NCBI GenBank assembly: GCA_963779605.1
Contig: CAVZYR010000003.1
Coordinates: 1,011,377-1,075,376 of the forward strand
Direction of reading: 5' to 3'
Length of the DNA stretch: 64,000 bases
Source of the DNA: an uncultured Solirubrobacteraceae bacterium
GTDB lineage: Bacteria > Actinomycetota > Thermoleophilia > Solirubrobacterales > Solirubrobacteraceae
The translations under genes were made by a program, and so were the position numbers. Below the pieces are notes generated by a model, which saw only the letters and a list, made by a program, of their open reading frames with translations, had not been told where the DNA came from and ran no database searches. Shown piece by piece: positions 9,413-46,512 of this stretch (positions are counted from its first letter, which is position 1; every line of letters starts with the position of its first letter).

Positions 9413-10807
9413 ATGAGCCAGACCGATCTCGCAGCCCCCACCGTGGAGGACCTGCGCGCGACGATCGCCGGCGAGGTGATCACGCCCGAGGACCCGGCCT
9501 ATGAGGAGGCACGCCTCGTGTGGAACGGCATGATCGACCGCCGCCCCGCGCTGATCGTGCGCCCCGCTTCGCGCGAGGACGTCGTGGCCGCGCTGGCCGC
9601 CGCGCGCGAGCACTCGCTGCTCGTCAGCGTGCGCTGTGGCGGGCACTCGACGCCGGGCTACAGCTCCTGCGACGGCGGGCTCGTGATCGACCTGCGTCCG
9701 ATGAACCGGGTCGAGGTCGACGCTGGCGCGGGCACGGCGCGGGTTCAGGGCGGCGCGATCTGGCGTGAGCTCGACGCGGCCACCCAGGAGCACGGGCTGG
9801 CGGTGACAGGCGGGCGCGTCTCGGACACCGGCGTCGGCGGGCTGGCCGTCGGCAGCGGCAGCGGCTGGCTCGAGCGCTCCTACGGGGTCACCAGCGAGAG
9901 CCTGCTCTCGGCCGAGGTCGTGACCGCCGACGGCAGCGTCGTGACGGCCAGCCCGCAGGAGAACCCCGAGCTGTTCTGGGGCCTGCGCGGGGGCGGGGGA
10001 AACTTCGGCGTCGTCACCGAGTTCGAGTTCCGCCTGCATCCCGTCGGTCCCATCCTCGCCGGTGGCCTGCTGCTGTACCCGCGGGCGCAGGCGCGCGAGG
10101 TGATCCGCAACTACCGCGACTTCATCGCCCAAACCCCCGACGCGGTCTCCGGGGGCGTGGCGCTGCTGACGGCGCCGCCGGAGGAGTTCGTGCCCGAGGA
10201 GGTGCGGGGAAAGCCCGCCGTCGGCATCGTCTTCTGCTACGTCGGCTCTCCCGAGGAGGGCATGGCGGCGGCCGAGCCGCTGCGCGCCTTCGGATCGCCC
10301 GTGGTGGACATGATTCAGCCGATGCCCTATGCCGTCGTGCAGCAGATGCTCGACGCCGGCAGTCCCCGCGGGGTGCGCGAGTATTTCAAGGTGGACACGC
10401 TCACCACCCTCTCCGACGCCGCCATCGACGCGATCGTCGCTCAGGCCGATGGCCTCCCGACGCCATTCGGGCAGCTCGTGCTCGGGCCGCTCGGGGGTGC
10501 GCTGGATCGCACCGACCGCGAGGCGATGGCGCTGACGCTCGACGACGGCGAGTGGACGTACTTCTGCCTGTCGATGTGGATGGACCCCACGCAGGATCAG
10601 GCCAACACGGCCTGGGCCCGCGGCTTTCACGAGGCAATGCGCCCGTTCGCCGTGGGCACCGCGATGCCCAACTTCATCGAGCCCGACGAGGGCGTCGCGC
10701 GCCTGCGCGCGTCCTACGGGGAGGACAAGTACGCGCGCCTGTCCGCGCTCAAGCAGCGCTGGGACCCCGACAACGTCTTCCGGCTCAACCAGAACATCGT
10801 GCCGTAG
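9413..10807 (+). CDS. FAD-binding oxidoreductase (berberine-bridge-enzyme / 6-hydroxy-D-nicotine oxidase-like)
   Basis: Start MSQTDL after an [15 protein letters not shown]. Motifs SVRCGGHS, TGVGGLAVGSG, LFWGLRGGGGNFGVVTEFEF, and BBE tail YARLSALKQRWDPDNVFRLNQNI. Confidence 0.9.
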   Translation: MSQTDLAAPTVEDLRATIAGEVITPEDPAYEEARLVWNGMIDRRPALIVRPASREDVVAALAAAREHSLLVSVRCGGHSTPGYSSCDGGLVIDLRPMNRVEVDAGAGTARVQGGAIWRELDAATQEHGLAVTGGRVSDTGVGGLAVGSGSGWLERSYGVTSESLLSAEVVTADGSVVTASPQENPELFWGLRGGGGNFGVVTEFEFRLHPVGPILAGGLLLYPRAQAREVIRNYRDFIAQTPDAVSGGVALLTAPPEEFVPEEVRGKPAVGIVFCYVGSPEEGMAAAEPLRAFGSPVVDMIQPMPYAVVQQMLDAGSPRGVREYFKVDTLTTLSDAAIDAIVAQADGLPTPFGQLVLGPLGGALDRTDREAMALTLDDGEWTYFCLSMWMDPTQDQANTAWARGFHEAMRPFAVGTAMPNFIEPDEGVARLRASYGEDKYARLSALKQRWDPDNVFRLNQNIVP

Positions 10808-10817
10808 GGGGCGGGCC

Positions 10818-11237
10818 GTGCCTCTCACCGGCGGATGTGGCTGCGGCGCCGTGCGCTTCGAGGTGAGCCGACCACTCGTCTCCGCGCACTACTGCCACTG
10901 CACGCGCTGCCAGCGGCGCAGCGGGACCGCCGCCTCCGCCAATGCGCGCGCAGAGCCGGGATCGTTCCGGATTTCAAGCGGCGAGTCGAGCCTGCGTGCG
11001 TGGACGCCCGAGGGCGGCTTTGAGAAGTGGTTCTGCCGCGACTGCGGCTCGGCGGTGTTCAGCCGCGACCCACACGACCGCGATCGGGTGAGCGTTCGCC
11101 TCGGCACGTTCGACGACGACCCTCAGATCCGGCCCACGATGCGCCAGTTCGTGGCCTACGCCGCCCCCTGGGAGGCGATCCCCGAGGACGGGCTGACGCG
11201 TCATGAGGAGAGCGGACACCGCGTGCGCGAGCAGTGA
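10818..11237 (+). CDS. GFA / CENP-V-like zinc-binding protein
   Basis: GGCGCGAVRF, CHCTRCQR, FCRDCGS. Confidence 0.9.
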   Translation: MPLTGGCGCGAVRFEVSRPLVSAHYCHCTRCQRRSGTAASANARAEPGSFRISSGESSLRAWTPEGGFEKWFCRDCGSAVFSRDPHDRDRVSVRLGTFDDDPQIRPTMRQFVAYAAPWEAIPEDGLTRHEESGHRVREQ

Positions 11238-11311
11238 CGCCGGGGCAAAGACCCGGCGAACGCCTCCGATCTTGCAGGCCGTAGCCCGGCGACGTGGTAA
11301 TAGTTGTGCCT

Positions 11312-12259
11312 ATGGCACGCGCGATCTGGACCGGCGCAGTCGGCTTCGGCCTGGTCACGGTGCCGGTCAAGCTCTACAGCGCGCTCGACCGCAAGAACGT
11401 GCGCTTTCACCAGCTGTCGGGCAAGACCGGGATCCGCGTGGCACAGAAGCGCATCGATCCGCAGAGCGGCGACGAGGTCCCCTACGAGGAGATCGTCAAA
11501 GGCTATGAGATCGCGCCCGAGCGCTACGTCGTGATCGCGCCGGGAGAGCTCGAGACGCTGCAGCCGAAGAAGAGCAAGACGATCGAAATCGAGGACTTCG
11601 TCGAGCTCTCGCAGATCGACCCCATCTACTACGAGCACCCCTACTACCTCGCCCCCGGGCCAGGAGGGGCCAAGCCCTACCGGCTGCTGCTCGAGGCGAT
11701 GCAGCAGGATGGCCGCGTCGCGATCGCGCGCTTCGTGATGCGATCCAAGGAGCAGCTCGTCGCGATCCGCCCGATGGGCGACGTGCTCGAGATGGCGACG
11801 ATGCTGTTCGCCGATGAAATCCTCCCCCCTGAGCGAATCGGCGAGATCTCAGAGCTCGCCGAGGTCAAGACGACCAAGCGCGAGCTGGACGTGGCCAGGC
11901 AGCTCGTGGACTCCCTGGCCGGCGACTTCAACCCCGACGCCTACCGCGACAGCTACCGCGAGGAGGTGCTCGCGCTGATCGAGCGAAAGGCCCAGGGCGA
12001 GGAGATCGCCGTGCAGCCCGCGGCCGAGGAGGTCAGTGCGCCGGCGCCTGACCTCATGAGCGCGCTGAAGGCCAGCCTCGAGGCGGTGCGCGCACGCGAT
12101 GAGACCGAGGCCGCCCCGTCCAAGAAGCGCCGCAAGCCCGCCGCCGGCAAGCCGGCCGCCAAAAGGCCCGGGGCCGGCAAACCCGCCGCCGAAAAGCCGG
12201 CCGCCAAGAAATCCGCTGCCAAGAAGCCCGCAGCACAGCGAGCCGCCGCGAAGCGGTAG
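11312..12259 (+). CDS. ku: NHEJ DNA end-binding protein Ku
   Basis: MARAIWTGAVGFGLVTVPVKLY, EIVKGYEI, IEIEDFV, YYLAP, DLMSALKASL and a basic PAAK-repeat tail. Confidence 0.96.
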   Translation: MARAIWTGAVGFGLVTVPVKLYSALDRKNVRFHQLSGKTGIRVAQKRIDPQSGDEVPYEEIVKGYEIAPERYVVIAPGELETLQPKKSKTIEIEDFVELSQIDPIYYEHPYYLAPGPGGAKPYRLLLEAMQQDGRVAIARFVMRSKEQLVAIRPMGDVLEMATMLFADEILPPERIGEISELAEVKTTKRELDVARQLVDSLAGDFNPDAYRDSYREEVLALIERKAQGEEIAVQPAAEEVSAPAPDLMSALKASLEAVRARDETEAAPSKKRRKPAAGKPAAKRPGAGKPAAEKPAAKKSAAKKPAAQRAAAKR

Positions 12260-14694
12260 TGCCCCGCTCATCGAAGGGCAAGCAGACCGACCCCCTCGAG
12301 AGCTACCGCTCGAAGAGAGACTTCACGCTGACCAGCGAGCCCGCCGGGCACGCCGCGCCCGAGGTGCAGTCACTGCGCTTCGTGATCCAGGAGCACCACG
12401 CGAGCAGCCTGCACTGGGATCTGCGCCTGGAGCGAGAAGGAGTGCTCGTTTCCTGGGCGCTGCCCAAGGGCCTTCCCGAGGCCCCCGGGGAAAACCACTT
12501 TGCGGCGGGCACCGAGGATCACCCGCTCGCGTACATCGACTTCGACGGCGAGATCCCGAAGGGCGAGTACGGGGCCGGCGCGATGACGATCTGGGATCGC
12601 GGGACCTATGAGTGTGAGAAGTGGGAGCCGCGCAAGGTCGAGGTCGCGCTGCACGGGAGGCGCGTCGACGCCCGCTACGCGCTGTTCGCAATCAGCGACG
12701 AGGCCGAGGACGGGGTCCGGGCCAAGGACTGGATGATCCACCGAATGGACCCACCCGCCGACCCGCACCGCGAGCCGATGCCCCGCCACCTCGAGCCGAT
12801 GCTCGCCCGCGCCGGAGAGCTTCCGCGCGACGACGGTCGCTGGGCGTATGAGATCAAGTGGGACGGCGTGCGCGCGATCGCCTACTCGCAGCCCGGCCGG
12901 CTCGAGCTGCAGAGCCGAAACCTCAAAGACATCACCGGCTCCTATCCCGAGCTGCGCCGGCTCAATCGCGCGCTCAGCTCGCACAGCGCGATCCTGGACG
13001 GCGAGATCGTCGCCTTCGGCGAGGAGGGCCGCCCGAGCTTCGCTGCGCTTCAGCACCGCATGCACGTCAGCTCGCCGGCGCAGGCAGCACGCCTGGCGAA
13101 GGGCAGCCCCGTCACCTACGTCATCTTCGACCTGCTGTGGCTCGATGGCCACTCGCTCATGGGCCTTCCCTACTCCGAGCGCCGCGAACGCCTGGCTTCC
13201 CTGAAGCTCACCGGAGCGAGCTGGCAGACGCCGGAGCACCTCGTGGGGTCGGGCCGAGAGGTGCTCGAGGCCAGCGCCGCACAGGGTCTCGAGGGCGTCG
13301 TCGCCAAGCGCCTCGACTCGACGTATGAGCCCGGCCGCCGCGCCGGCGCGTGGGTGAAGATCAAGAACTTCAAGCGCCAGGAGTTCGTCATCGGGGGCTG
13401 GCTGCCGGGCAAGGGCGCGCGCGGGGCGCGCATCGGCGCCCTGCTCGTCGGCGTGCATGAGGACACTGGCGCACTCGCCTACGCAGGCCGCGTCGGCACC
13501 GGCTTCTCAGAGCAGGAGCTCGACCGCCTCGCGGGCCTGCTCGCCGGACTGGAGCGCGAGGGCTCGCCGTTCTCGGCCGGCCCGGCGCCGCCGCCGGGCG
13601 CAGTCTTCTGTGACCCGAAGCTCGTGGTCGAGGTCGAGTTCACGGAGTGGACCAGAACGGGCAGCCTGCGCCACCCCTCCTACAAGGGCCTGCGTGACGA
13701 CAAGCCGGCCGAGCAGGTGGTGCGCGAGGATCGACCCGCGACTCGCGTCGACGGCGACCACGATGACGCGCTCGTCATCGGAGAGGCGCGCGCGGGGAAG
13801 GCCTCCGCCACCATCGCCGGCCGCGAGCTGACCCTGTCGAACCTCGACAAGGTGCTGTATCCCGAGGCCGGCTTCACCAAGGCTGAGGTCATCGACTACT
13901 ACGCCTCGATCGCACCGGTCCTGCTCCCGCACCTCGACGGGCGTCCGCTCACCGTCAAGCGCTGGCCCGACGGCGTACAGGCGAAGTCGTTCTTTCAGAA
14001 GCAGGCCCCCGCGCATCGCCCCGACTGGGTGCGCACCGTGACCGTCCCCGCCGAGCGCAAGCCGATCGACTACCTGCTCGCGGAGGATCTGCCCACGATC
14101 GTGTGGCTCGCGAACCTCGCCGCCCTTGAATTGCATACGCCGCTCGCGCGTGCTGAGGCGATCGAGCGGCCGACGATGCTCGTGTTCGATCTCGACCCCG
14201 GCAAGCCCGCGACGATCGTCGAGTGCTGTGAGGTGAGCCTGCGCCTACAGGCCATGTTCGAGAACCTCGGCATGCAATCCTTCGCGAAGACGTCGGGCTC
14301 CAAGGGACTCCAGCTGTACGTCCCGCTCAACACCCCCGCGATCACCTTCGAGCACACCAAGCAGTTCGCCAAGGCGGTGGCCGAGCTGCTCGAGCGCGAG
14401 GAACCCGACCTGGTCGTCTCGCGCATGACCAAGGCGCGGCGCACCGGCAAGGTCCTGATCGACTGGAGCCAGAACGACCACCGCAAGACGACCGTGTGCG
14501 CGTATTCGCTAAGAGCGGGCGAGCGCCCGACCGTCTCGACCCCGGTCGAGTGGCGGGAGGTGCGCGCCGCACTGGATTCCGGCGATCCGGCGCTCCTGTC
14601 CTACGAGGCCGGCCGCGTGCTCGAACGGGTGGGCGAGCAGGGAGACCTGTTCGCGCCGGTTCTCTCGCTGATACAGGAGCTCCCGGCGCTGTGA
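12259..14694 (+). CDS. ligD: Multifunctional NHEJ DNA ligase D (phosphoesterase-ligase-polymerase)
   Basis: PE domain FVIQEHHASSLHWDLRLE; ligase YEIKWDGVR and EGVVAKR; polymerase LSNLDKVLYP, FDLDPG, KTSGSKGLQLYVPL. 1-nt overlap with ku. Confidence 0.95.
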   Translation: MPRSSKGKQTDPLESYRSKRDFTLTSEPAGHAAPEVQSLRFVIQEHHASSLHWDLRLEREGVLVSWALPKGLPEAPGENHFAAGTEDHPLAYIDFDGEIPKGEYGAGAMTIWDRGTYECEKWEPRKVEVALHGRRVDARYALFAISDEAEDGVRAKDWMIHRMDPPADPHREPMPRHLEPMLARAGELPRDDGRWAYEIKWDGVRAIAYSQPGRLELQSRNLKDITGSYPELRRLNRALSSHSAILDGEIVAFGEEGRPSFAALQHRMHVSSPAQAARLAKGSPVTYVIFDLLWLDGHSLMGLPYSERRERLASLKLTGASWQTPEHLVGSGREVLEASAAQGLEGVVAKRLDSTYEPGRRAGAWVKIKNFKRQEFVIGGWLPGKGARGARIGALLVGVHEDTGALAYAGRVGTGFSEQELDRLAGLLAGLEREGSPFSAGPAPPPGAVFCDPKLVVEVEFTEWTRTGSLRHPSYKGLRDDKPAEQVVREDRPATRVDGDHDDALVIGEARAGKASATIAGRELTLSNLDKVLYPEAGFTKAEVIDYYASIAPVLLPHLDGRPLTVKRWPDGVQAKSFFQKQAPAHRPDWVRTVTVPAERKPIDYLLAEDLPTIVWLANLAALELHTPLARAEAIERPTMLVFDLDPGKPATIVECCEVSLRLQAMFENLGMQSFAKTSGSKGLQLYVPLNTPAITFEHTKQFAKAVAELLEREEPDLVVSRMTKARRTGKVLIDWSQNDHRKTTVCAYSLRAGERPTVSTPVEWREVRAALDSGDPALLSYEAGRVLERVGEQGDLFAPVLSLIQELPAL

Positions 14695-14715
14695 GCGCGC
14701 GGCCGGCTCGCCGCG

Positions 14716-15219
14716 TCAGCCGGTCATCTCCTCGCCGGCCAGCAGCTCCATCAGCAGGCTGTCGTGCCAGTCCTCCCCGCCGGTGTCGCGCTCGTAGCAT
14801 CGCATGATGCCCACGGGCCTGAAGCCCGCCTTCTCGTATGCGCGGATGGCCGCGGTGTTCGCCACGGCTGGATCGATCGTGATGCGGTGGTGGCCGCGCT
14901 CTGCGATCAGCTGGCGCACGACCCGCCTGAGCGCCTCGGTGCCGAGACCGCGGCCGTGCACGGGCGGATCCAGGAACAGGTCGATCGCGGCGTGGCGGTA
15001 TCTCGGCGCGAGCTCCTCGTGGAACTCGATCAGGCCGATGATCACGCCGTCGAGCAGGATCGTCTGGCGAGTCGCATCCGGTTCGTCCGTCGCCGGGAAG
15101 CCCTCGGGCGGCTCGCCCCACCAGCGCGCGACCTCCGGCGTCGCGTGGATGCGCCGCAGCTCGCCCGCGTCGGCCGCTTGCAGGGGGCGCAGCTTGATGT
15201 CCTTCGGCGAGTCAGCCAC
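14716..15219 (-). CDS. GNAT N-acetyltransferase (RimL / AAC(6')-like)
   Basis: HGRGLGT acetyl-CoA motif, HHRITIDP, NTAAIRAYEKAGFRPVG. Confidence 0.85.
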   Translation of the reverse strand: MADSPKDIKLRPLQAADAGELRRIHATPEVARWWGEPPEGFPATDEPDATRQTILLDGVIIGLIEFHEELAPRYRHAAIDLFLDPPVHGRGLGTEALRRVVRQLIAERGHHRITIDPAVANTAAIRAYEKAGFRPVGIMRCYERDTGGEDWHDSLLMELLAGEEMTG

Positions 15220-16254: not shown

Positions 16255-19220
<2,966 letters not shown>

Positions 19221-19236
19221 AATCCGAGTGTAGCGA

Positions 19237-37159: not shown

Positions 37160-37494
37160 TACCCGTGCTGAGGAATGTCGGCCGGTAGCGGAGAGTCCGA
37201 GATTGCAGGCGTTTACGGGCTTCGGTGTGATCGAAGTAGGCGCGGATGCGCGAGATCTTGCCGTCGCGAAGGGACATCGATTACCCCGCGCGACCGAGGT
37301 CGGCGAAGGCTCGCTCGCTCGTCAAGCCACCGACGCCACGCCGAGGCCATCGCGGCGATGCCCTCGGTGCGGTCGGGATCGAGATCGACGTCCCTGACGA
37401 ACTCGATGTCGCTGTGCGCCCAATCTACCCGGCGGAAGTCTCCTTGTTCCCAGTCCGCGCAGATCGAACGCACGAGGTCCAGGTTCTCGGACAT
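37160..37494 (-). pseudogene. Frameshifted, internally deleted SnoaL/NTF2-like gene
   Basis: N-terminus [20 protein letters not shown]...WAHSDIEFV is SnoaL-like. The typical C-terminal strand [19 protein letters not shown] is read in another frame near 37278-37220 and the middle of the fold is missing. Confidence 0.7.
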
Positions 37495-37497
37495 CGG

Positions 37498-37914
37498 CTA
37501 CTTCCGCTCCTCCGCGAGGCGTTCGGCGGCAGCACGGGCCTCGTCGATGTCCGTGTAGGTCGTGTTGCGCACGATCAAACCGTCCACCCATTCCGTGACC
37601 GATCCGTAACGAAGCTGAGCCGAACCGCTGCTCCCGGCGACCCGCCCCTTCTGCAGTATCACCGCGAATGCGATTCCGTTCCCGAGATCACAAATCTCCT
37701 CGGCCTTCCACTCAATGCCGGAGTAGGAGCTGCGCCAGTCCTCAAAGAAGCCTCGCACGGCTGCCTGGCCCTCGAACACGCCCATCCCCCAGGGCGATGC
37801 ATCCCAGACAGCGTGGGGAGCGTAGAAGCCCACCGCTGCCTCCATGTCCTCGACCTCGATGCTCCTGCGTATCAGCTCCTCCAGGTCGGGGGTCGCGGAC
37901 TCCTCGGATGTCAT
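37498..37914 (-). CDS. SnoaL/NTF2-like protein (copy A)
   Basis: FYAPHAVWD, GQAAVRGFFEDW, EEICDLGNG, WVDGLIVR...YTDIDEARAAAERLA; about 77% identical to 46027..46443 by manual alignment. Confidence 0.88.
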   Translation of the reverse strand: MTSEESATPDLEELIRRSIEVEDMEAAVGFYAPHAVWDASPWGMGVFEGQAAVRGFFEDWRSSYSGIEWKAEEICDLGNGIAFAVILQKGRVAGSSGSAQLRYGSVTEWVDGLIVRNTTYTDIDEARAAAERLAEERK

Positions 37915-37956
37915 GCGCCGAGTATCCATCAATCCGAGCATCAGGTCAGCTCCGCG

Positions 37957-38091
37957 ATCTTCGAGGGGCGCCGTTCATACCCGTCCCTCGTCTTCTCCGC
38001 TGAGCGGGGGCGATCGATCAACCCCGAGCTGGTTACCCACCGGTTCGCCAAGCATCGCAAGGCGGCGGGCATCCCACCTGGGAGCCCCCAC
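37957..38091 (+). pseudogene. Possible remnant of a tyrosine recombinase/integrase C-terminal domain
   Basis: Reads IFEGRRSYPSLVFSAERGRSINPELVTHRFAKHRKAAGIPPGSPH, resembling the lVF..G..l.p..l..rF....k.AGi....H segment before HxLRH; no start and no catalytic LRH follows. Confidence 0.4.
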
Positions 38092-38293
38092 CCGGCGGCG
38101 ACGGGGGGCCAGCTCATCTTCCGTTTGAGCGCGCGGGCCCGCGTGCCGGTAGGTAATCTACCGACCGCACCGGGCGCAAACTGGAGTGATCGGTGCCACG
38201 CCCCCGGCCTGCCCCCCAGGTGCGGGGGCACTCGACTGAGAGGGGCTCCCGCAATCACCGAGAGCCGCGAGCGCGCTCGCGCCACGGCCGCGC

Positions 38294-38737
38294 TCACTGC
38301 GCGGGCGGTGGGCGCGGCGGCGGCGCCGCCGGCTCATACAGCGATGTGCGTTCGTCGCGCATCGACTGCCATGCGCCGGCGAGGATCAGCACGGCTCCGG
38401 CAAGCGCCAGCCAGGCGCCGGCGCACAGCGAGGTCGCGTGATCGGGTCGCTCGATCACCCTCACGAGCGCGGCGATCACGGCCACGAGCCCGAGAGCGAA
38501 GGTCCACACCGCGGCGGCGACGGGCAGCGCCGTGCTGCGCTCGGTGACGGTGGCGGCGACCAGCGCCAGCGCCGCGCCCGCCCCCAGCATCAGGAGCACC
38601 ATGGCCGGCCCGAACGTGCTCCACGCATCGAGCGAGCCGGTGGGGGTTTCATACCAGCGCAGGAACAGCGACACGATCACGCAGGCGGCCCCCGCAAGAG
38701 CCAGGAGCTCGCCGACGCGCATGCGCTTGAAGTTCAC
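38294..38737 (-). CDS. Hypothetical four-TM membrane protein
   Basis: Four hydrophobic segments and a Pro-rich tail; 4 nt downstream of folD. Confidence 0.78.
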   Translation of the reverse strand: MNFKRMRVGELLALAGAACVIVSLFLRWYETPTGSLDAWSTFGPAMVLLMLGAGAALALVAATVTERSTALPVAAAVWTFALGLVAVIAALVRVIERPDHATSLCAGAWLALAGAVLILAGAWQSMRDERTSLYEPAAPPPRPPPAQ

Positions 38738-38741
38738 GGCG

Positions 38742-39623
38742 CTATGCCTCGATCGGCGCGTGCCGGCGGGCCGCCTGCATCGTGTTGCCCAGCAGCAGGG
38801 CGATCGTCATCGGGCCGACCCCGCCGGGCACGGGCGTGATCGCCGAGGCGACCTCGGCGGCGGCGGCGAAGTCGACATCGCCGACCAGTCCACTGTTATT
38901 TCCCGCCTCCTCCGGGGTGATCCGATTGATGCCGCCGTCGATCACCACCGCTCCGGGCTTCACGAACTCCCTCCCGATCAGCCTCGGGCTCCCGACGGCC
39001 GCGATCAGCACATCCGCGCGAGCGCACACCGCGCGCAGGTCGCGGGTGCGCGAATGACACGTCGTCACCGTGGCGTTCTCCGCTAGCAGCAGCTGGGCCA
39101 TGGGCTTGCCGAACAGGTTCGAGCGCCCGACCACCACGGCTTCGGCGCCCTCCAACTCGACTTCCGTGTCCGCCAGCAGCTCCATCACCCCGAGCGGCGT
39201 GCACGGCCTAAGCCCCGGGCTTCCGAGTGACAGCGCCCCGACGTTGACGGGGGTCAGCCCGTCGACGTCCTTGCCCGGGTCGATCATCGCGGTCAGCGCG
39301 GGACCGTCGAGGTGCTCGGGCAGCGGCAGCTGCAGGAGCACCCCGCTGACCGCGGCATCGGCGTTCAGGTTCGCGAGCTCCTCGGCCACCTCCTGGAACG
39401 ACGCCGCCGCATCCAGGCGGCGATCGAACGGGATCATCCCCACCTCAAGGCACGCGCGCTGCTTGCCTGCCACATACACGGCCGAGGCCGGGTCTTCGCC
39501 GACGAGCACGGTGGCCAGCCCGGGCGGGCGGGGGGCGTGCTTGACGAACTCCTGCACCTCGCGGGCGACCTCGCCGCGCACGCGCGCCGCGATCGCCTTG
39601 CCGTCGATGATCCTGGCGCTCAC
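38742..39623 (-). CDS. folD: Methylene-THF dehydrogenase/cyclohydrolase
   Basis: IIDGKAIA, LLQLPLP, KDVDG, PCTPLG, VVVGRSNLFGKP, GDVDF, ITPVPGGVGPMT. Confidence 0.97.
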   Translation of the reverse strand: MSARIIDGKAIAARVRGEVAREVQEFVKHAPRPPGLATVLVGEDPASAVYVAGKQRACLEVGMIPFDRRLDAAASFQEVAEELANLNADAAVSGVLLQLPLPEHLDGPALTAMIDPGKDVDGLTPVNVGALSLGSPGLRPCTPLGVMELLADTEVELEGAEAVVVGRSNLFGKPMAQLLLAENATVTTCHSRTRDLRAVCARADVLIAAVGSPRLIGREFVKPGAVVIDGGINRITPEEAGNNSGLVGDVDFAAAAEVASAITPVPGGVGPMTIALLLGNTMQAARRHAPIEA

Positions 39624-39666
39624 GACGCGGATGCTAAGGGTTGCGGCAGACCATCGACGCGGAGAT

Positions 39667-42015
39667 TCAGCGGCGGCTGACCGGGGCGTACTCGGCCATC
39701 AGCTTGCGCTCGGAGCCGTCGCCGGCGAAGCGCACGACGATCACCCCATCGGGCTCGACCCCGGTGACCACGCCCTCGCCGAATGCGGCGTGCACGACGT
39801 CCTCGCCGAGACGAAAGGCGACGGCCACCGGCGCCTCGCGCATGCCGGACGCGGCCCAGTCCCCGGACGCGGGGGCGCGCGCTCCAAGCTGGGTCGCCAC
39901 GCCCGAGGCGCCCACGCCCGCGTGGATCGGGTCGATGCGCTGGCCGACCCCCCAGCGGCCCGATTCCTCGGGCTCGTCGATGAGCTCGGAGGGAATCTCA
40001 TCGACGAAGCGGCTGCGCATTCCATTCGTATGGGCGCCGAACACCGCGCGCCTGCGCGCGTATGTCAGATACAGCGCGCGCATCGCCCGGGTCACGCCGA
40101 CATAGAACAGACGCCGCTCCTCCTCGAGCTCACCTTCGTCGATCGCGCGCGAATGGGGAAACACGCCGTCCTCGCATCCGGCGATGAACACGGTCGGGTA
40201 CTCGAGCCCCTTGGCGTTGTGCAGCGTCATCAGCGTCACGAGGCCCTCATCCTCGCTGCGCGAGTCGGCGTCCGCGACGAGCGCGATCTCCTGCAGGAAC
40301 ACATCGAGCGTGTCCTCCCCCTCCCCGGCGCCGGCATCGAACTCGCGTCCCACCTCGACGAGCTGCTCGAGGTTCTCAAGGCGCCCCTGCGCCTCGATCG
40401 TGCGCTCGGCCTCGAGGGCTTCCAGATAGCCGCTCTGCGACAGCACGGCCTCGAGCAGCTCGGCAATCGGAAGCGCGCCGGCGCCCTCGCTCTCACCTCC
40501 GGCCGGCGCCCGGTCATCGGCGGGCAGCCCCGCGAGCGCGCGCAGCTCCTCCATCGTGCCCATGAAGCGATCGAGCGCCTTGATCGCGGCCGCACCGAGG
40601 CCCGGCACCTGCTGGGGCGCGGCGGCGGCCTCCCACACCGAGACGTCCATGGCGGCGGCGTGCGCGAGCACGCGCGCGAGCGAGGTCTGCCCCAGCCCGC
40701 GTCGCGGGGAGTTGGCGATGCGCGTGAAGCTGACGACGTCGAAGGGGTTGGCGAGCAGCGACAGGTAGGCGATCGCGTCCTTGATCTCGGCGCGCTCGTA
40801 GAACTTCGTGCCACCGATCACCTGATAGGCGATCTCCCGGCGGACAAGCGTGTCCTCGAGCACCCGTGACATCGCGTTCGTCCGGTACAGGACCGCGATC
40901 TCGGCGCGGGCGGCGCCCTCGTCGAGGAGCCGCTCGATCTCGCCGACGACGAACCGCGCCTCGGCGTGCTCGTCGTCCAGCGCGCGCACGTGGACCTTGT
41001 CCCCCTCCCCCAGCTCGCTCCACAGCCGCTTGGCGATGCCGCCGCGGTTGTTGGCGATGACGGCGTTGGCGGCGGACAGGATGGTCTCGGTGGAGCGATA
41101 GTTCTGCTCGAGCTTGACCACGCGCGCATCGGGGAAGTCATCCCGGAAGTCGAGGATGTTGCGCACCTCCGCGCCGCGAAAGCTGTAGATCGACTGCGAG
41201 TCATCGCCGACCACAGCGAGGTTGCGGTGGCCGGGAATGTTGACGCTCGCGCCGCGCTCGGGCTGCTGGCGCCCGCCCCCGACGAGCAGCTGCAGCAGCC
41301 GGTACTGGGCGAAGTTCGTGTCCTGGTACTCGTCCACGAGCACGTGGCGGAAGGTCGCCGAGTAGCGCTCGCGAACCTCCGGGAACAGCTCGAGCAGGTT
41401 GACCGTCCTGAACAGCAGGTCGTCGAAGTCCATCGCGTTCATGCGATGCAGGTCGCGCTCGTAGATCTCATACACGTCGGCCACCATCTCCTCGAATGGC
41501 GAGCCGGCCGACTCGCGGCAGTCCGCGGCCGCGCGCAGCCGGTTCTTCGCGGCCGAGATCTGGTTGTGAATGGCCGCCGGCGTGAAGCGCTTGGGATCGA
41601 CCCCGACCGCGTCGGCCGAGCGCTTGGCCAGCCGGCGGGCATCCGCCTGGTCGTAGATCGTGAACTGTCGCGTATACCCGAGGCGCTCGGCCTCGGCGCG
41701 CAGGATGCGCGCGCAGGCGGCGTGAAACGTCATCAGCCACATCCCCCGCGTGCCTCGACCCAAGAGCGCCTCCACGCGTCCGCGCATCTCCTTGGCCGCC
41801 TTGTTGGTGAAGGTGATCGCGAGGATCTCCCCCGCCTGTGCCTGGTCGGTGTAGATCAGGAACGCGATCCGATGTGTGAGCACGCGCGTCTTTCCGCTGC
41901 CGGCGCCCGCGAGTATCAGGAGCGGCCCCTCGCCGTGCGTGACCGCCTCGCGCTGGGGCTCGTTGAGCCCCTCCAACAGCTCCTGGAGGTGCTCTGCGTG
42001 CGGGTTCTCGGGCAT
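39667..42015 (-). CDS. pcrA: ATP-dependent DNA helicase PcrA/UvrD
   Basis: AGAGSGKT, TFTNKAA, VDEYQDTN, VGDDSQSIYSFRGA, LEQNYRS, TLHNAKGLE, EERRLFYVGVTRA and a C-terminal Tudor-like domain. Confidence 0.96.
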   Translation of the reverse strand: MPENPHAEHLQELLEGLNEPQREAVTHGEGPLLILAGAGSGKTRVLTHRIAFLIYTDQAQAGEILAITFTNKAAKEMRGRVEALLGRGTRGMWLMTFHAACARILRAEAERLGYTRQFTIYDQADARRLAKRSADAVGVDPKRFTPAAIHNQISAAKNRLRAAADCRESAGSPFEEMVADVYEIYERDLHRMNAMDFDDLLFRTVNLLELFPEVRERYSATFRHVLVDEYQDTNFAQYRLLQLLVGGGRQQPERGASVNIPGHRNLAVVGDDSQSIYSFRGAEVRNILDFRDDFPDARVVKLEQNYRSTETILSAANAVIANNRGGIAKRLWSELGEGDKVHVRALDDEHAEARFVVGEIERLLDEGAARAEIAVLYRTNAMSRVLEDTLVRREIAYQVIGGTKFYERAEIKDAIAYLSLLANPFDVVSFTRIANSPRRGLGQTSLARVLAHAAAMDVSVWEAAAAPQQVPGLGAAAIKALDRFMGTMEELRALAGLPADDRAPAGGESEGAGALPIAELLEAVLSQSGYLEALEAERTIEAQGRLENLEQLVEVGREFDAGAGEGEDTLDVFLQEIALVADADSRSEDEGLVTLMTLHNAKGLEYPTVFIAGCEDGVFPHSRAIDEGELEEERRLFYVGVTRAMRALYLTYARRRAVFGAHTNGMRSRFVDEIPSELIDEPEESGRWGVGQRIDPIHAGVGASGVATQLGARAPASGDWAASGMREAPVAVAFRLGEDVVHAAFGEGVVTGVEPDGVIVVRFAGDGSERKLMAEYAPVSRR

Positions 42016-42129
42016 CAGATATCCAGCATAGATGCGTACTCGGCGGGGCTCGCAGACGACCTGCGCGGCCGCATCAGCCCGCGCCGATGCCGGCGGCGCT
42101 CGCCGCGAGATGCGGCGCAGGCCTCGGGA

Positions 42130-42870
42130 CTAACCGCCCGCCGGGTTCGGGCCCTTGACCTCGCGCAGCGGCCTGATCTCGGCCACCGGCTGGGACTCGC
42201 CCTCGGACAGCTCTGACACCATCCGTTCGAGCGCGCCGATGCGGCTGACCAGCCCCTGGATCGCCTCGGCGATCGGGTCGGGCAGGTGGATCCAGTCGGC
42301 GTCGGGGCCCTCGACGCGGCGTCCGTCCACGCGCACGGGGTGGCCGGGGTTGCCCACCACGGTCGAGTTGGGCGGCACGTCGGTGATCACGACGCTGTTC
42401 GCACCGATCTTCGCCCCGTGCCCGATCGTGATCGGACCGAGCAGCTTCGCCCCCGAGCCGATCGTGACGTTGTCCTGCACCGTTGGATGGCGCTTGCCGG
42501 TGGCGAAACCGGTGCCTCCCAGCGTGACCCCCTGGTAGAGGGTGACGTCGTCGCCGATGTCAGCGGTCTCGCCGATCACCACACCGGCGCCGTGGTCGAT
42601 GAACAGACCCTGCCCGATGTGCGCCGCCGGGTGGATCTCGATCCCCGTGAGCGCGCGCGTCAGCATCGAGATCAGGCGTGGCAACAGCGGCACGTCGGCC
42701 GCGTGCAGCGCGTGGGCCACGCGGTAGGCAAGCAGCGCGTGGATCCCGGGCCAGGTGGCGAGGATCTCGCCCTGTCCGACGCCGCGGGCCGCGGGGTCGC
42801 GATCGCGCGCCGCGAGGACATCTCGACGCACCTCCTTCGCGACCTGCGCGAAGGTATCGAAGCCGGGCAT
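42130..42870 (-). CDS. cysE: Serine O-acetyltransferase
   Basis: RDPAA, TGIEIHPAAHIG, FIDHGAGVVIGET, QGVTLGGTG, KRHPT; start ATG 42870 with TACGCT 6 nt upstream. Confidence 0.95.
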   Translation of the reverse strand: MPGFDTFAQVAKEVRRDVLAARDRDPAARGVGQGEILATWPGIHALLAYRVAHALHAADVPLLPRLISMLTRALTGIEIHPAAHIGQGLFIDHGAGVVIGETADIGDDVTLYQGVTLGGTGFATGKRHPTVQDNVTIGSGAKLLGPITIGHGAKIGANSVVITDVPPNSTVVGNPGHPVRVDGRRVEGPDADWIHLPDPIAEAIQGLVSRIGALERMVSELSEGESQPVAEIRPLREVKGPNPAGG

Positions 42871-42941
42871 GCCAACAGCGTAGCGGCCGAACCACAGATA
42901 GTTGACTGCGCAGCCATCTTCGGACAGCGCGCGAGCGGCCG

Positions 42942-42959
42942 GCGCCCCTCGAGGGGCGC
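42942..42959. terminator. Perfect 18-bp palindrome GCGCCCCTCGAGGGGCGC after cysK (possible terminator hairpin)
   Basis: 10 nt downstream of the cysK stop; no U-tract. Confidence 0.4.
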
Positions 42960-42969
42960 TCATAGGAAC

Positions 42970-43920
42970 TCAGGGCGCGAAGAAGGCCTGCGAGACGTAG
43001 CGCTCGCCGGAGTCCGGCATGACCACCACGATCCGCTTGTCCCTGGACTCGGGACGGGCGGCGACTTGAAGCGATGCCCACAACGCCGCTCCCCCGGAGA
43101 TCCCGGCGAGCAGGCCCACGCGGCGGGCGCAGCTCCAGGCGGTCTGGACGGCGTCGTCGTCGGATACGGCCACCACCTCGTCGAGCAGCTCGCGGTTCAG
43201 CACCGGCGGCACGAACCCGGCGCCGATCCCCTGGATGCGGTGCGGACCGGTCTGCCCGCCGGAGAGCACCGCCGAGCCGAGCGGCTCCACCGCGACCACA
43301 TGCAGCTTCGGGTTGCGCTCGCGCAGATACTCGCCCACCCCGGTGATCGTGCCACCGGTCCCCACGCCGGCGACCAGCACGTCGACGCGGCCATCGAGCG
43401 CGCGCTCGATCTCCGGTCCCGTCGTCCGCCGGTGGACCTCCGGGTTGGCGGGATTCGAGAACTGGTCGGGCAGGAACGTGTCACCCTCCCGCGCCATCGC
43501 GCGCGCAGCCTCGACCGCCTCTCCCATGCCGCCGAGCGACTCGGTGACATCCACCCGCGCGCCGTACAGCCGCAGCAGGCTCTCACGCTCCCGGCTCATG
43601 CCCTGGGGCAGCGTCAGCACCAGCTCATAGCCCTTGGCGGCGCACACGAACGCGAGCGCGATCCCCGTATTGCCGCTCGTCGCCTCCACGATCCTCGTGC
43701 GCCCCGGCTCGATCCTTTCTTCGGCCTCGGCCGCCTCGATCATCGCGACGCCGATGCGGTCCTTGACGCTTCCCCCCGGGTTGAACGCCTCGAGCTTGGC
43801 GAATAGCTCAACCCCATTGGCCGCCGCGGCCGTGGCGTCGAGCATCCGCGGAAGCCCGACCAGCGGAGTGCTCCCGACGAGTTCCGCAATGTTGATCGGG
43901 ATTTCTGCCATAGACGCCAC
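42970..43920 (-). CDS. cysK: Cysteine synthase A
   Basis: AKLEAFNPGGSVKDR, EATSGNTGIALA, GVGTGGT, HRIQGIG, PDSGERY; start could also be ATG 43911. Confidence 0.96.
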   Translation of the reverse strand: MASMAEIPINIAELVGSTPLVGLPRMLDATAAAANGVELFAKLEAFNPGGSVKDRIGVAMIEAAEAEERIEPGRTRIVEATSGNTGIALAFVCAAKGYELVLTLPQGMSRERESLLRLYGARVDVTESLGGMGEAVEAARAMAREGDTFLPDQFSNPANPEVHRRTTGPEIERALDGRVDVLVAGVGTGGTITGVGEYLRERNPKLHVVAVEPLGSAVLSGGQTGPHRIQGIGAGFVPPVLNRELLDEVVAVSDDDAVQTAWSCARRVGLLAGISGGAALWASLQVAARPESRDKRIVVVMPDSGERYVSQAFFAP

Positions 43921-44025
43921 GACAATAGTGGGCCAGGCGGGCGCGCGCGATTCGGAAGGGCCGCCGGCGCATGCATGGCCGCCGGGCGGCCCAGCACACG
44001 GCGGTGGAGACGCTCCGCCGGCGCA

Positions 44026-44529
44026 TCACCAGCTGCTCTGCTGGCCACCTGCGCAGCCGGTCTTGGTGATCGGGCTCGTGCAGCTGCGGGTGATTTCGCC
44101 GTTGGCGCTCCTGGCGATCGTGAATTCGTCGCCGGTGGCCGCTTTCGTCGTCACCGAGTATTCGCTCTTGGCGCTCGTGGTGGCGCTCAGGTAGGCCACG
44201 CTCGTGTTCGTGGTGATGGGGATCGAGGGCTCGTACCTGTTCAGTTCGGCCGCATTCACCTTCGCGTATTCGCCGCTGTTGTCGGTCGCGATCGTCTCGG
44301 CCGTGGTCTCGGCGGCGCGGGCGAGCGCCTTGGCCTGCGCGTCGTTTGCCTTGCCCTTCTGCCCGGCGAAGGCGGGGATCGCGATCGCCGCGAGAATGCC
44401 GATGATCAGGATCGCGACGAGCAACTCGATCAGCGAGTAGCCAGCGGCGTCGGTGAGGCGCTCACGCGTGCGCCCGGGACCGTTCAGCTCGATGCGGGCG
44501 CTTGACTGCTGGGAAACCTTTGAAAACAC
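44026..44529 (-). CDS. Type IV pilin (prepilin with class III signal peptide)
   Basis: ...LTDAAG|YSLIELLVAILIIGILAAIAIPAF with Glu at +5; C-terminal Cys pair (SC...GC); GGAGG RBS before the GTG. Confidence 0.9.
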   Translation of the reverse strand: MFSKVSQQSSARIELNGPGRTRERLTDAAGYSLIELLVAILIIGILAAIAIPAFAGQKGKANDAQAKALARAAETTAETIATDNSGEYAKVNAAELNRYEPSIPITTNTSVAYLSATTSAKSEYSVTTKAATGDEFTIARSANGEITRSCTSPITKTGCAGGQQSSW

Positions 44530-44549
44530 GATAGCCCTCCGTAGCGTCT

Positions 44550-44627
44550 CGCTGGCGGCCGAGCTATCTCGTGTCGAGATCCCTGACTTTGCGCCGTCAC
44601 CTCACGGTGAGTTTGCCTCTTTCAGCG
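44550..44627 (-). promoter_or_regulatory. c-di-GMP-I (GEMM-I) riboswitch
   Basis: Minus strand CGCTG-AAAGA-GGCAAAC-TCACC-GTGA-GGTGA-C-GGCGCAAAG-TCAGGGATCTC-GACAC-GAGATAGC-TCGGCCGC-CAGCG: P1 CGCTG/CAGCG, GNRA-capped P2, GGCAAAC and CGCAAAG cores, P3 stem. Confidence 0.88.
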
Positions 44628-44716
44628 TGTTTGGTTGTCCGAGTCCCGCACTGTGCAGCACCGATGCGCTCCTGTGAAGCGCAGGTCTCACATTGCAAGA
44701 GAAATGGACGGATGTA

Positions 44717-45001
44717 CTAGCGCGCCGACAGGGCGGCGGCGGGGAGCCGACCGCCACCGACATGGCGGCGGTCGGGGATCAGTGCGGCGAGGGGTGCGAC
44801 CACGAGCCGGCGGTCGACCGCCGCGAGCTAGGAAATCGGCACGCTCGTGCCGACGACCGCAACCTCCGGTCCGAGCTGGCGACACTCGACGACGAGCCTC
44901 TCGGATTCGGCGTCCCATGCGGTCAGCATGTCCACGATCGCCTTCGGCAGGGCGTGAATGCCCGCGGGTTGCGTCTCTGACTGAGCGATTGAGTGCTCCA
45001 T
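44717..45001 (-). pseudogene. Possible degraded small ORF (MEHSIAQ...) with an in-frame TAG at 44828-44830
   Basis: GGGGAGG upstream; the frame stays open past the TAG to a second TAG at 44717; no recognisable motif. Confidence 0.25.
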
Positions 45002-45236
45002 GCAACCAACGTCGGCCTCCCCGCTCCCACGCTTAGCGACGCGACGGATCTTGCACGAGCCCGCTTCTCACCGCAACGTGCGGAGACTTCGCGGCCCGCC
45101 CCCGCGACGCGGGCGGGCGAACCTGTTTAGGATCGCCCTACCTCAACGCGTGGGAGGCGCTGCCCCCGGTTTTTCCCCTCCGGCCGGGGGCACGCGTATT
45201 CGCCCCAGCGCGAGGGGCTTCGGGCTGCGAGCGCTG

Positions 45237-45494
45237 TCAGGGACGCCCGGTCACCGTCAGCGCGCTCTCGGGGATCACATACCAGAACGTTCCCACGATG
45301 CGGGCAGCGGGGCGGCCGGGCAGGCGTTCTCCGGACCGGACGTGGTCGCCTTCGATCCGGCCGCCTACCTCCATCACAGCCGCGTCGAGTTCATCCATCG
45401 TGACGCCCTCCACATGTATCCGAGAACGCGCGCAGTAGCCCGCAGGAGCCCGCACGGTGCTCGCGACGGGCAGCGAATCGAGAATCGAGCTCAT
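45237..45494 (-). CDS. Small hypothetical protein
   Basis: Inner part of ORF 45237..45554 from MSSILDSL...; ends GTFWYVIPESALTVTGRP; start uncertain. Confidence 0.45.
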   Translation of the reverse strand: MSSILDSLPVASTVRAPAGYCARSRIHVEGVTMDELDAAVMEVGGRIEGDHVRSGERLPGRPAARIVGTFWYVIPESALTVTGRP

Positions 45495-45579
45495 GCCTGC
45501 GTCAGTCTGCGCCCCGCGCCGGACGGATCGGTCGACGGAGCGGCCGGCCTCCACCGCACCGGACAGCGGCGACCGATCC

Positions 45580-45993
45580 CTACTCGCTGAGGCCCGCCGC
45601 CCGTAGCGCCTCCTCCATGGTCAGGTACTCGCGGCTTTGAACGATCTTGCCGCCGCGGATCGTGTACACGACCGGGAACCGAATCTCGGCGGGCACGCCG
45701 CTGGCCCGCGCTGTTCCAGCCAGGTGCGATACGGCGATCACGCGACCCGGGCCTGCGTCGATGACGTCCTCGATTACGATCGTGAGGTCGGGAAACGTCT
45801 CGTACCAGTCGGCGCCGTAGGCGCGCATCGCGTCACGACCGATGATCGGGCCGTGATCGTCCGGGGCGCCCTCGATGGCCCGGTGATCCATGTCCTCCGC
45901 CCACGCGTTCTCGTACCAGAAGCCGAGATAGTCCTCAGCGAGCGCCGCCTGCTCGATCCACGACTGGAAGAGCTGGACGTCGGACTCGCTCAT
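45580..45993 (-). CDS. SnoaL/NTF2-like protein
   Basis: GPIIGRDAMRAY..DWYETFPD, EDVIDAGPGRVIAV, GTARASG, VYTIRGGKIVQSREY; own TAGGCT-N7-ATG promoter. Confidence 0.88.
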   Translation of the reverse strand: MSESDVQLFQSWIEQAALAEDYLGFWYENAWAEDMDHRAIEGAPDDHGPIIGRDAMRAYGADWYETFPDLTIVIEDVIDAGPGRVIAVSHLAGTARASGVPAEIRFPVVYTIRGGKIVQSREYLTMEEALRAAGLSE

Positions 45994-46026
45994 CGCCGTC
46001 AGCCTACCCCGCGAAGACCGCCGTGC

Positions 46027-46443
46027 CTACCCCCGGCCCGCGGCGAGCCGCTCGGCGGCGGCGCGGGCCTCCTCGATGTCGGTGTAGGTCGTGTTGCGCA
46101 CCATCAAACCGTCTGTCCATTGCGCCACAGATCCGTAGCGAAGCTGAACGGAACCGCTGCTCCCCGCGAAACGCGCCGTCTGCAAGATCACGGCGAACGT
46201 GACCTCACTGCCCAGATCACGAACCTCCTCGGCCGTCCGCTCGATGCCGGAGTAGGAGCTGCGCCAGTCCTCAAAGAAGCCTCGCACGGCTGCCTGGCCC
46301 TCGAACACGCCCATCCCCCAGGGCGATGCGTCCCAGACGGCGTCGGGAGCATAGAAGCTCAGGGCTGCCTCGAGGTCCTCGGTCTCGATGCTTCTGTGTG
46401 CAAGCTCGACCAGGTCGGCTGTCGTGGACTCCTCGGGCATCAC
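46027..46443 (-). CDS. SnoaL/NTF2-like protein (copy B)
   Basis: Paralog of 37498..37914 with the same length and motifs. Confidence 0.88.
   Translation of the reverse strand: MMPEESTTADLVELAHRSIETEDLEAALSFYAPDAVWDASPWGMGVFEGQAAVRGFFEDWRSSYSGIERTAEEVRDLGSEVTFAVILQTARFAGSSGSVQLRYGSVAQWTDGLMVRNTTYTDIEEARAAAERLAAGRG
46244..46329. repeat. 86-bp exact repeat shared with 37715..37800
   Basis: atgccggagtaggagctgcgccagtcctcaaagaag...cccccagggcgatgc is identical at both loci and in the same orientation. Confidence 0.92.
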
Positions 46444-46512
46444 CCGCTGAGTATCGCGTAGGGAATGCTGATCAACCCGCGGTGTCCAACTGGCGCTGCG
46501 GAGCCCCCGTCC

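Follow-up and report, generated by a model that had tools for sequence, protein, structure and literature searches.

Two SnoaL-like gene patches in a Solirubrobacteraceae genome: probable fragments of larger NTF2-fold gene arrays, with a putative conversion tract shared by their lead genes

We analysed four SnoaL-like genes in a stretch of 64,000 nucleotides from an uncultured Solirubrobacteraceae bacterium (contig CAVZYR010000003.1, positions 1,011,377 to 1,075,376), which we call the window. Coordinates without a label count from its first letter, and loci from related genomes carry L numbers. An earlier note on this DNA, made from the letters alone, had described the four genes as two head-to-tail pairs, and this is how they are arranged on the minus strand: gene A is followed by a decayed partner, and gene B is followed by gene D. 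No further SnoaL copies were found in the 64-kb window. Between 35.3 and 49.7 kb all genes lie on the minus strand, in the order gltX, a HDOD-LuxR regulator, rrf2, B, D, about 1 kb of non-coding DNA, a cyclic di-GMP (c-di-GMP-I) riboswitch, a pilin-like gene, cysK, cysE, pcrA, folD, a membrane-protein gene (38294-38737), 379 bp, A, the decayed SnoaL-like stretch, gatC and gatA.

Genes A (37498-37914, stop codon TAG) and B (46027-46443, start codon GTG) both encode 138 residues and belong to the same type of cassette, here called A/B-type, which leads each pair. D (45580-45993, 137 residues) belongs to another subfamily and starts 33 nt after B, whereas A is joined to its decayed partner through TAG-CCG. 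All three proteins exceed the curated threshold of the NTF2-like Pfam family SnoaL_2 (PF12680; cutoff 27 bits), with 38.4 bits for A, 41.5 for B and 46.3 for D, and D also matches the SnoaL family with 38 bits. The closest relative of A is found in L007 (89.5% amino acid identity) and the closer relatives of B in L001, L002 and L003; orthologues of D occur in L005 (86%) and L002 (73%). The GC content at third codon positions (GC3) of A is 0.81 compared to 0.89-0.91 in the adjacent genes, and the patch genes are generally below their neighbours in this respect.

The AlphaFold2 model of B (mean predicted local distance difference test score, pLDDT, 91; predicted template modelling score, pTM, 0.83) has the alpha+beta cone fold of NTF2 with an extra C-terminal helix. 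Many NTF2-fold proteins are among its top 50 Foldseek matches in the PDB (TM-scores 0.53-0.70), and the best structures are TerC, limonene epoxide hydrolase and ketosteroid isomerase, with TM-scores of 0.63-0.70 at an identity of 10-22%. Weak sequence matches in the PDB are a SnoaL-like domain protein and MonBI/MonBII. We would commit ourselves only to the view that the proteins are likely to be cytoplasmic NTF2-fold proteins which bind small molecules or act as enzymes.

There are 70 differences between genes A and B over 417 bases, and 33 at the protein level (the earlier note had counted about 32), yet the two genes share a segment of exactly 86 identical nucleotides, bounded by a mismatch on each side. 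It corresponds to codons 39-67 and lies at 37715-37800 in A and at 46244-46329 in B, in both cases on the minus strand. When the 70 differences were placed at random, no such run appeared in 100,000 trials (P < 1e-5), and a GENECONV-style permutation of the polymorphic sites only gave P = 2.5e-5 for 17 sequences and P = 5e-4 for the 10 closest ones. The synonymous divergence (dS, by the method of Nei and Gojobori) between A and B is not uniform along the gene, with 0.53 outside the block and 0.05 within its 29 codons. Inside the 86 nt, about 7 synonymous differences are expected and none is observed (P ~1e-4).

To place this identity in its family context we used 15 A/B-type genes from other assemblies. 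In the flanks (gene nucleotides 36-85 and 201-402), A goes with L007, and B with L001-L003, at 28-29 informative sites. Between nucleotides 86 and 200 no site supports the topology of the flanks; only one quartet-informative site and two to three character states favour grouping A with the B type. At the informative codons of the block A has the TCC and GGC of the B type, while its own relatives have TCA and GAC. A comparable drop of dS in the block was not seen between A and L007 (0.09 outside, 0.14 inside) or between B and L001 (0.36 and 0.31), and likewise not between L005 and L001. As the best reading of these data, the identity would be a short tract of ectopic gene conversion on top of a slowly evolving segment, and the copying probably went from the B type into A. 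Some pairs from different genomes (B-L003, L004-L003) share the block haplotype, so that the mosaicism is not limited to the genome of the window.

The earlier note had proposed gene conversion between A and B, and this proposal fits best with the local fall of dS and with the permutation results; the few informative positions inside the tract would point to a switch of nearest relative as well. The note had also seen in the genes an actively duplicating family with segments being shuffled around the ligand pocket, and here our results point the other way. With a dS of 0.53, and with each gene closer to genes of other genomes than to its counterpart, A and B are old paralogues. The tract coincides with the most conserved part of the protein, with residues 34-68 the same in A and B; because it falls in this segment, the event would have homogenised the sequence and left the pocket unchanged.

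Could the identity have arisen with no conversion at all, if strong purifying selection acts on the protein, codon choice is biased in a genome with 70% GC and the local mutation rate is low? The most conserved residues, among them the invariant W42, G43, F56, F57, W60 and Y64, are indeed encoded by the block, 11 of its 29 codons are hardly or not at all degenerate, and it is less diverged than the flanks in every close pair. On the other hand, at least 15 of the block codons vary synonymously across the family (GCA/GCG, GGG/GGC, GTG/GTC, CGA/CGG and TTT/TTC are all found), several pairs have the same dS in the block as in the flanks, and A and B have the non-preferred GCA, CGA and TTT in common. 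Together with the lack of the expected synonymous differences and the B-type character states which A takes on inside the block, this makes an explanation by constraint unlikely in our view. As a separate observation on this region, an A/B-type gene in L012 (10001-10384) has lost 10 codons (30 nt) between two FE repeats, which is an example of slippage.

A still less probable explanation is an artefact of assembly or polishing, by which the reads of one paralogue overwrote the other inside the block; an assembly artefact was part of the refuting case considered in the earlier note. The genome is apparently assembled from a metagenome and its relatives are all metagenome-assembled genomes (MAGs), so cross-mapping of paralogues during polishing is conceivable. 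However, Logan unitigs from public soil runs, made with another assembler, match the window with 0 differences over 37659-37809 and 46250-46421, and therefore, in data close to the raw reads, either copy of the block is directly linked to sequence specific to that copy. This support is not fully independent, since the assembly may have been made from the samples of these public runs. Moreover, B-type genes of other assemblies have nearly the same block haplotype (2-5 differences). Taken together, we regard an artefact as highly improbable.

Next, we compared the surroundings of both pairs with related genomes. Patch 1 comprises 1,055 bp between the membrane-protein gene and gatC (37222-38276) and is absent in relatives. 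In a blastn alignment with the empty site of L028, window 38400-38277 corresponds to L028 4778-4901 and window 37221-37100 to L028 4920-5041. Since the homology stops at 38277 and resumes at 37221, L028 has 18 bases at the point where the window has 1,055. When metagenome contigs were scanned for GatC, 71 loci were obtained; about 39 of them have the membrane-protein gene as the neighbour of gatC, without any SnoaL gene in the gap, and SnoaL domains were found in none of the 71. Several of these loci also keep the order cysK-cysE-pcrA-folD upstream. At the edges of patch 1 we found no target duplication, direct repeats or terminal inverted repeats.

The decayed stretch behind A (37213-37494) turned out to be two gutted cassettes. 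It has no Pfam match, and its full-length relatives score 25-26.5 bits, just below the cutoff. The remnant of the second cassette (37281-37494, minus strand), of a type that we call Cdec, has codons 1-57 intact (37324-37494) and has lost its middle part; a C-terminal piece, ERAFADLG, represents the last 13 codons in another frame and ends with TAA at 37281-37283. Searches with full-length partners from L014, L006, L099 and L021 by tblastn recovered residues 1-57 with E = 1e-13 to 7e-19 and residues 121-133 with E = 0.004. Of the third cassette (37222-37277, minus strand) there remain M-S followed by residues ~106-125, truncated at the patch edge. The joints read TAG-CCG-ATG between A and the second cassette, and TAA-TCG-ATG between the second and the third. 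Given the two remnants, patch 1 seems to derive from an array with three or more cassettes and to have been eroded later by internal deletions.

Patch 1 also contains, on the plus strand, a relic of a tyrosine integrase (37975-38091), namely 39 codons from just before the catalytic HxLRH box. Compared with an integrase from L013 (13925-15070), it has 64% amino acid identity over 36 residues (E = 2e-10) and 75.5% nucleotide identity over 98 nt. The L013 protein is intact, with 381 residues and the domains Arm-DNA-bind_4 and Phage_integrase. Taken alone, the relic has no Pfam match (E up to 10) and no tblastn match among 50,697 phage records; its recognition depended on the L013 protein. The L013 gene is part of a small element (11686-15070) that comes right after an array of four SnoaL genes and borders on a pilC-like gene; besides the intact Arm-binding tyrosine integrase, the element encodes an AAA_25 protein.

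Patch 2 (45324-46512, about 1,189 bp) consists of B, D and a tail of 256 bp, begins right after the stop codon of rrf2 and is absent in L097, the nearest relative at this site. There, window 46650-46515 aligns with L097 7256-7391 (94% nucleotide identity, within rrf2), and window 45323-44400 with L097 7432-8365 (87% along 940 nt in front of the pilin gene). For the 256-bp tail (45324-45579) we found nothing convincingly similar among the cassettes or the loci that we retrieved, and no target duplication or direct repeats were seen at the patch edges.

The gap between rrf2 and cysK is occupied quite differently in other relatives: it is empty in L100, holds only the pilin gene in L097, and an acetyltransferase and the pilin gene in L098 and L099. 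L002 has five SnoaL genes there, with the D-type before the B-type, and L010 has one inverted A/B-type gene plus 9 kb. In all genomes compared the homology stops at the rrf2 stop codon (window 46513; 7393 in L097, L098, L099 and L100; 10433 in L010), which suggests that this position marks a hot spot of recombination or insertion. The first gene after rrf2 in L002 (7905-8381) is a chimera, in which an A-type promoter box and 21 N-terminal codons are fused to the start (MSQENVE...) of another SnoaL cassette.

Thus, because both pairs are absent from the closest relatives, neither A with its partner nor B with D is an old syntenic locus. For patch 1, the dispersed insertion proposed in the earlier note agrees with the empty sites in L028 and the roughly 39 gatC loci, and for patch 2 with the one in L097. 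A third site is known from L099, which has an array of five SnoaL genes between cysE and pcrA. With the gatC, rrf2 and cysE-pcrA sites all occupied, SnoaL patches are found in three gaps of one conserved 12-kb backbone within a handful of relatives. The partner genes are of different SnoaL subfamilies and one of them is decayed, just as had been described. The idea of a mobile single cassette fared less well, since each patch appears to be a fragment of a larger type of array. Beyond a promoter-like box in front of A and B, we found no flank shared by the two patches, and neither a target duplication, an attC-like site nor an intact recombinase.

This box, GATACT(C), lies on the minus strand at 37920-37926 for A (5-6 nt before ATG) and at 46449-46455 for B (5-6 nt before GTG), close to the distance of about 6 nt given in the earlier note. 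In 15 of 17 A/B-type genes a box of the form GGGATACT is found 6-9 nt before the start, with unrelated DNA further upstream. The window has 5 copies of GATACTC against 2.6 expected, which is not significant by itself; it is the fixed position that matters. GATACT has the A2 and T6 of a -10 hexamer. Leaderless mRNAs are common in Actinomycetota, and the distance from GATACT to the start is as expected for them, so that the GGGATACT boxes may well act as -10 elements of leaderless transcripts. D has a candidate -10 element of its own, TAGGCT at 46001-46006 (minus strand), 7 nt before ATG, and TAGGTT is found at the same distance before its L002 orthologue. Judged from these conserved boxes at a leaderless distance, A, B and D could each be self-expressing, in line with what had been proposed before. 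A promoter scan with two hexamers and a terminator scan gave nothing at either patch, as one would expect if the promoters consist of a -10 element only.

We then surveyed 23 loci with A/B-type genes from Solirubrobacteraceae MAGs. These genes are almost always found in co-directional runs of SnoaL-like genes of 130-142 residues each, with maxima of about 14 genes (L019) and 15 domains (L011). Clear cases of arrays in a single frame with TAG-GCG-RTG joints are L019 6642-12877, L011 7039-15708, L006 8464-12569, L021 4516-7035 and L099 11878-14118. Among 66 clear internal junctions 63 end in TAG, a stop used by 30% of the other long genes there. The spacer has 3 nt in 56 of the 66 and is GCG in 46 of these 56; three further junctions read TAG-GTG-ATG. 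As a result of the TAG stop and the 3-nt spacer, whole arrays stay in one reading frame. The joint consensus, G GAG TAG GCG RTG TCG CAG GAG AAC, is 80-100% conserved, including the spacer and third codon positions, compared with 40-60% in the gene cores; the subfamilies share 30-45% of their residues. The motif GGAGG stands 8 nt before each start in the arrays, a spacing that would fit translational coupling.

The order of cassettes in the arrays is partly recurrent. A dyad of A-type followed by Cdec-type is seen in at least 9 arrays, and the B-D dyad of the window recurs in L005 and, in reversed order, in L002. In L005 an IS110-family transposase gene (10736-11827; DEDD_Tnp_IS110 and Transposase_20 domains) sits exactly between the A/B-type gene and the D orthologue. 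The syntenic arrays of L006 and L011 differ by one indel of a whole cassette, with breakpoints exactly at the joints. Adjacent cassettes are also found as in-frame fusions of two domains (L011 10001-10816, where TAG has become CAG; L006 11292-12110; L017 10001-10849). The fusions and the tight coupling hint that neighbouring array proteins may act together. An AlphaFold2 model of the L011 fusion, made without an alignment, reached a pLDDT of 35 and says nothing on the packing of the domains.

In soil metagenomes, the depth of contigs with at least 90% identity is 10- to 200-fold higher at both ends of A and B than in their cores, with peaks at 37459-37560, 37867-37917, 46055-46091 and 46388-46461; the 86-nt block, in contrast to the gene ends, is not over-represented. 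As the depth piles up on the ends and not on the cores, many different cassettes seem to share the A/B ends, and contigs also occur in which a 3' end is followed, across the canonical joint, by a 5' end. A lookup of the B protein in metagenome contigs gave no matching record. The genes flanking the arrays are mutually unrelated (cyclase-hydrolase, histidine kinase, GMC oxidoreductase, GrpB, cytidylyltransferase). An integrase within 10 kb was found in only one of the 23 loci, L013. In four of the 23 a tRNA gene lies about 50-800 bp from the SnoaL patch (L003 2757-2828, L009 10459-10531, L024 11606-11679, L004 9325-9414), which fits integration sites of the island type; in the window itself no tRNA genes were found. 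A full-text search of the literature gave no description of long single-frame NTF2-fold arrays with conserved joints, and the array family appears to be undescribed.

How could the two pairs have come about? We propose that both were derived, as fragments, from co-directional NTF2/SnoaL-like arrays, which are widespread in Solirubrobacteraceae. Either fragment would be headed by an A/B-type lead cassette with its own -10-type box, followed by a cassette of another subfamily. For patch 1 the array origin is suggested by its joints TAG-CCG-ATG and TAA-TCG-ATG, which match 56-59 of the 66 array junctions. This fragment would have entered the gap between the membrane-protein gene and gatC, either with or into a tyrosine-integrase element of which 39 codons are left, and its second and third cassettes would later have been gutted by internal deletions. 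The other fragment may have settled in the variable spot directly past the rrf2 stop codon. Later, homologous recombination would have copied at most 86 bp between the lead genes, which share ~80% identity, have the same orientation and are separated by 8.5 kb. Taken as a whole, from array origin through insertion to the later conversion between A and B, we would give this history a probability of about 65%.

Several observations weigh against parts of this history. For patch 2, an insertion in the window and a deletion in L097 are indistinguishable, since all relatives differ past the rrf2 stop. No att sites or target duplication back an integrase-mediated event at patch 1, and the relic may potentially stem from an unrelated earlier element. 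As to the conversion, there are only two to three phylogenetically informative sites inside the tract, the block diverges about three times slower than the flanks in most pairs from different genomes, and its dS is low also in the cross-genome pairs B-L003 and L004-L003. Part of the identity may accordingly reflect constraint or a circulating block haplotype. Finally, with respect to expression from the -10 boxes, the B-D stretch had no match in the RNA runs searched.

An alternative that partly overlaps with this history, and that we consider possible though less probable, is a cassette system that needs no recombinase. Shared DNA ends (...GGAGGAG TAG GCG RTG TCG CAG GAG AAC...) would serve as handles by which whole genes are gained, lost or swapped through homologous recombination, and the window would hold two outposts of this system. 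The junction is indeed nearly invariant at the DNA level, spacer and third positions included, across subfamilies with 30-45% amino acid identity, and its preference for TAG is far above that of other genes. The whole-cassette indel between L006 and L011, the chimeric first gene of L002 with its A-type 5' end, the metagenomic depth on the ends and the three occupied sites of the 12-kb backbone point in the same direction. Yet the patch edges in the window are not at cassette junctions, the B-D junction with its 33 nt is non-canonical, and an exchange event was not directly observed. Besides, translational coupling (with GGAGG as the Shine-Dalgarno sequence) or common descent explains the conserved junction equally well.

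In the most far-reaching reading, to which we give about the same confidence, the two patches would be outposts of an undescribed cassette system of Thermoleophilia, in which NTF2-fold genes with very different cores have conserved DNA ends in common. In such a system the TAG-GCG-RTG joint would be both a signal for termination and reinitiation on a leaderless polycistronic mRNA and a homology handle, the A/B-type cassettes would be portable heads that bring a promoter, and TAG joints and fusions would allow read-through or heterodimers.

Under the array-fragment history, the local events at our locus are of a familiar kind: the insertion of small accessory fragments, their decay, and a short conversion tract. 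Their value is that of clean, datable examples. The source is maybe more interesting, as single-frame NTF2-fold arrays with joints conserved in DNA are abundant in soil Solirubrobacterales. To this the window adds that array fragments appear to colonise the gaps of a conserved housekeeping block whose empty sites can still be seen in relatives, that one cassette type with a conserved promoter-like box heads the fragments, and that diverged cassettes within one genome seem to recombine still. If the joints were recombination handles, this would be a cassette system working without an integrase.

Two other features of the window may be mentioned. The c-di-GMP-I riboswitch (44551-44627, minus strand, Rfam score 45.7 bits) lies directly upstream of the pilin-like gene (44026-44529), which has an N-terminal methylation motif; the unit of riboswitch and pilin gene is present in L097, L002, L098 and L099 and absent in L100. 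A ZMP/ZTP riboswitch is found at 19142-19223 on the minus strand (Rfam score 61.6 bits).

Among known systems, integrons and clusters of attC sites lacking an integron integrase (CALINs) are a natural point of comparison. With them the arrays of the relatives share co-directional small accessory genes, gain and loss of whole genes, a putative lead promoter and a variable content between related genomes. One could therefore suspect cassettes of the integron type, moved by an IntI-like integrase via attC sites, and the tyrosine-recombinase relic in divergent orientation next to A, as well as the fact that most genes in the arrays of relatives lack a promoter of their own, would be in keeping with this. 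The arrays differ in having no attC or IntI, a spacing of 3 nt, one frame, one protein superfamily and a conserved boundary that lies within the coding ends, and in belonging to Actinomycetota, where an IntegronFinder survey reportedly found no integrons. Neither Rfam nor repeat scans found an attC-like structure, and no inverted repeat occurs at the cassette ends (spacers of 3 or 33 nt); with cassettes 3 nt apart there is no room for attC. The intact integrase of L013 has an Arm-binding N-terminus of the phage type and reaches 44 bits with the NCBIfam XerA/integron-integrase model, whose cutoff is 220, and only one array locus in 23 has an integrase nearby at all. With no attC and, beside the array, only a 39-codon relic in place of an IntI-type integrase, we rejected membership in the integrons, and the corresponding origin of the patches has next to no likelihood. 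Arrays of immunity genes for polymorphic toxins were rejected as well, as there was no toxin gene among the genes flanking ten arrays.

The tract in A and B resembles known cases of ectopic gene conversion in that a short identical segment lies in diverged copies of the same genome, with a local drop of dS and an apparent shift of the phylogenetic signal. It differs by its length of at most 86 bp, by partners that are only ~80% identical and by a block haplotype that occurs in cassettes of other genomes, too. Compared with islets carried by an integrase, the sites in the window lack att repeats and tRNA genes, and the integrase is reduced to 39 codons, whereas the empty sites, the lower GC3, the integrase remnant and the position of some related patches by tRNA genes are alike. 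At the level of the proteins, there is a parallel to MonBI/MonBII and Lsd19 of polyether biosynthesis. Near the genes of the window there is no polyketide cluster, and the identity is below 25%. Nevertheless, adjacent NTF2-fold paralogues cooperate in those pathways and are known as natural or engineered fusions, and in-frame fusions are found in the arrays as well.

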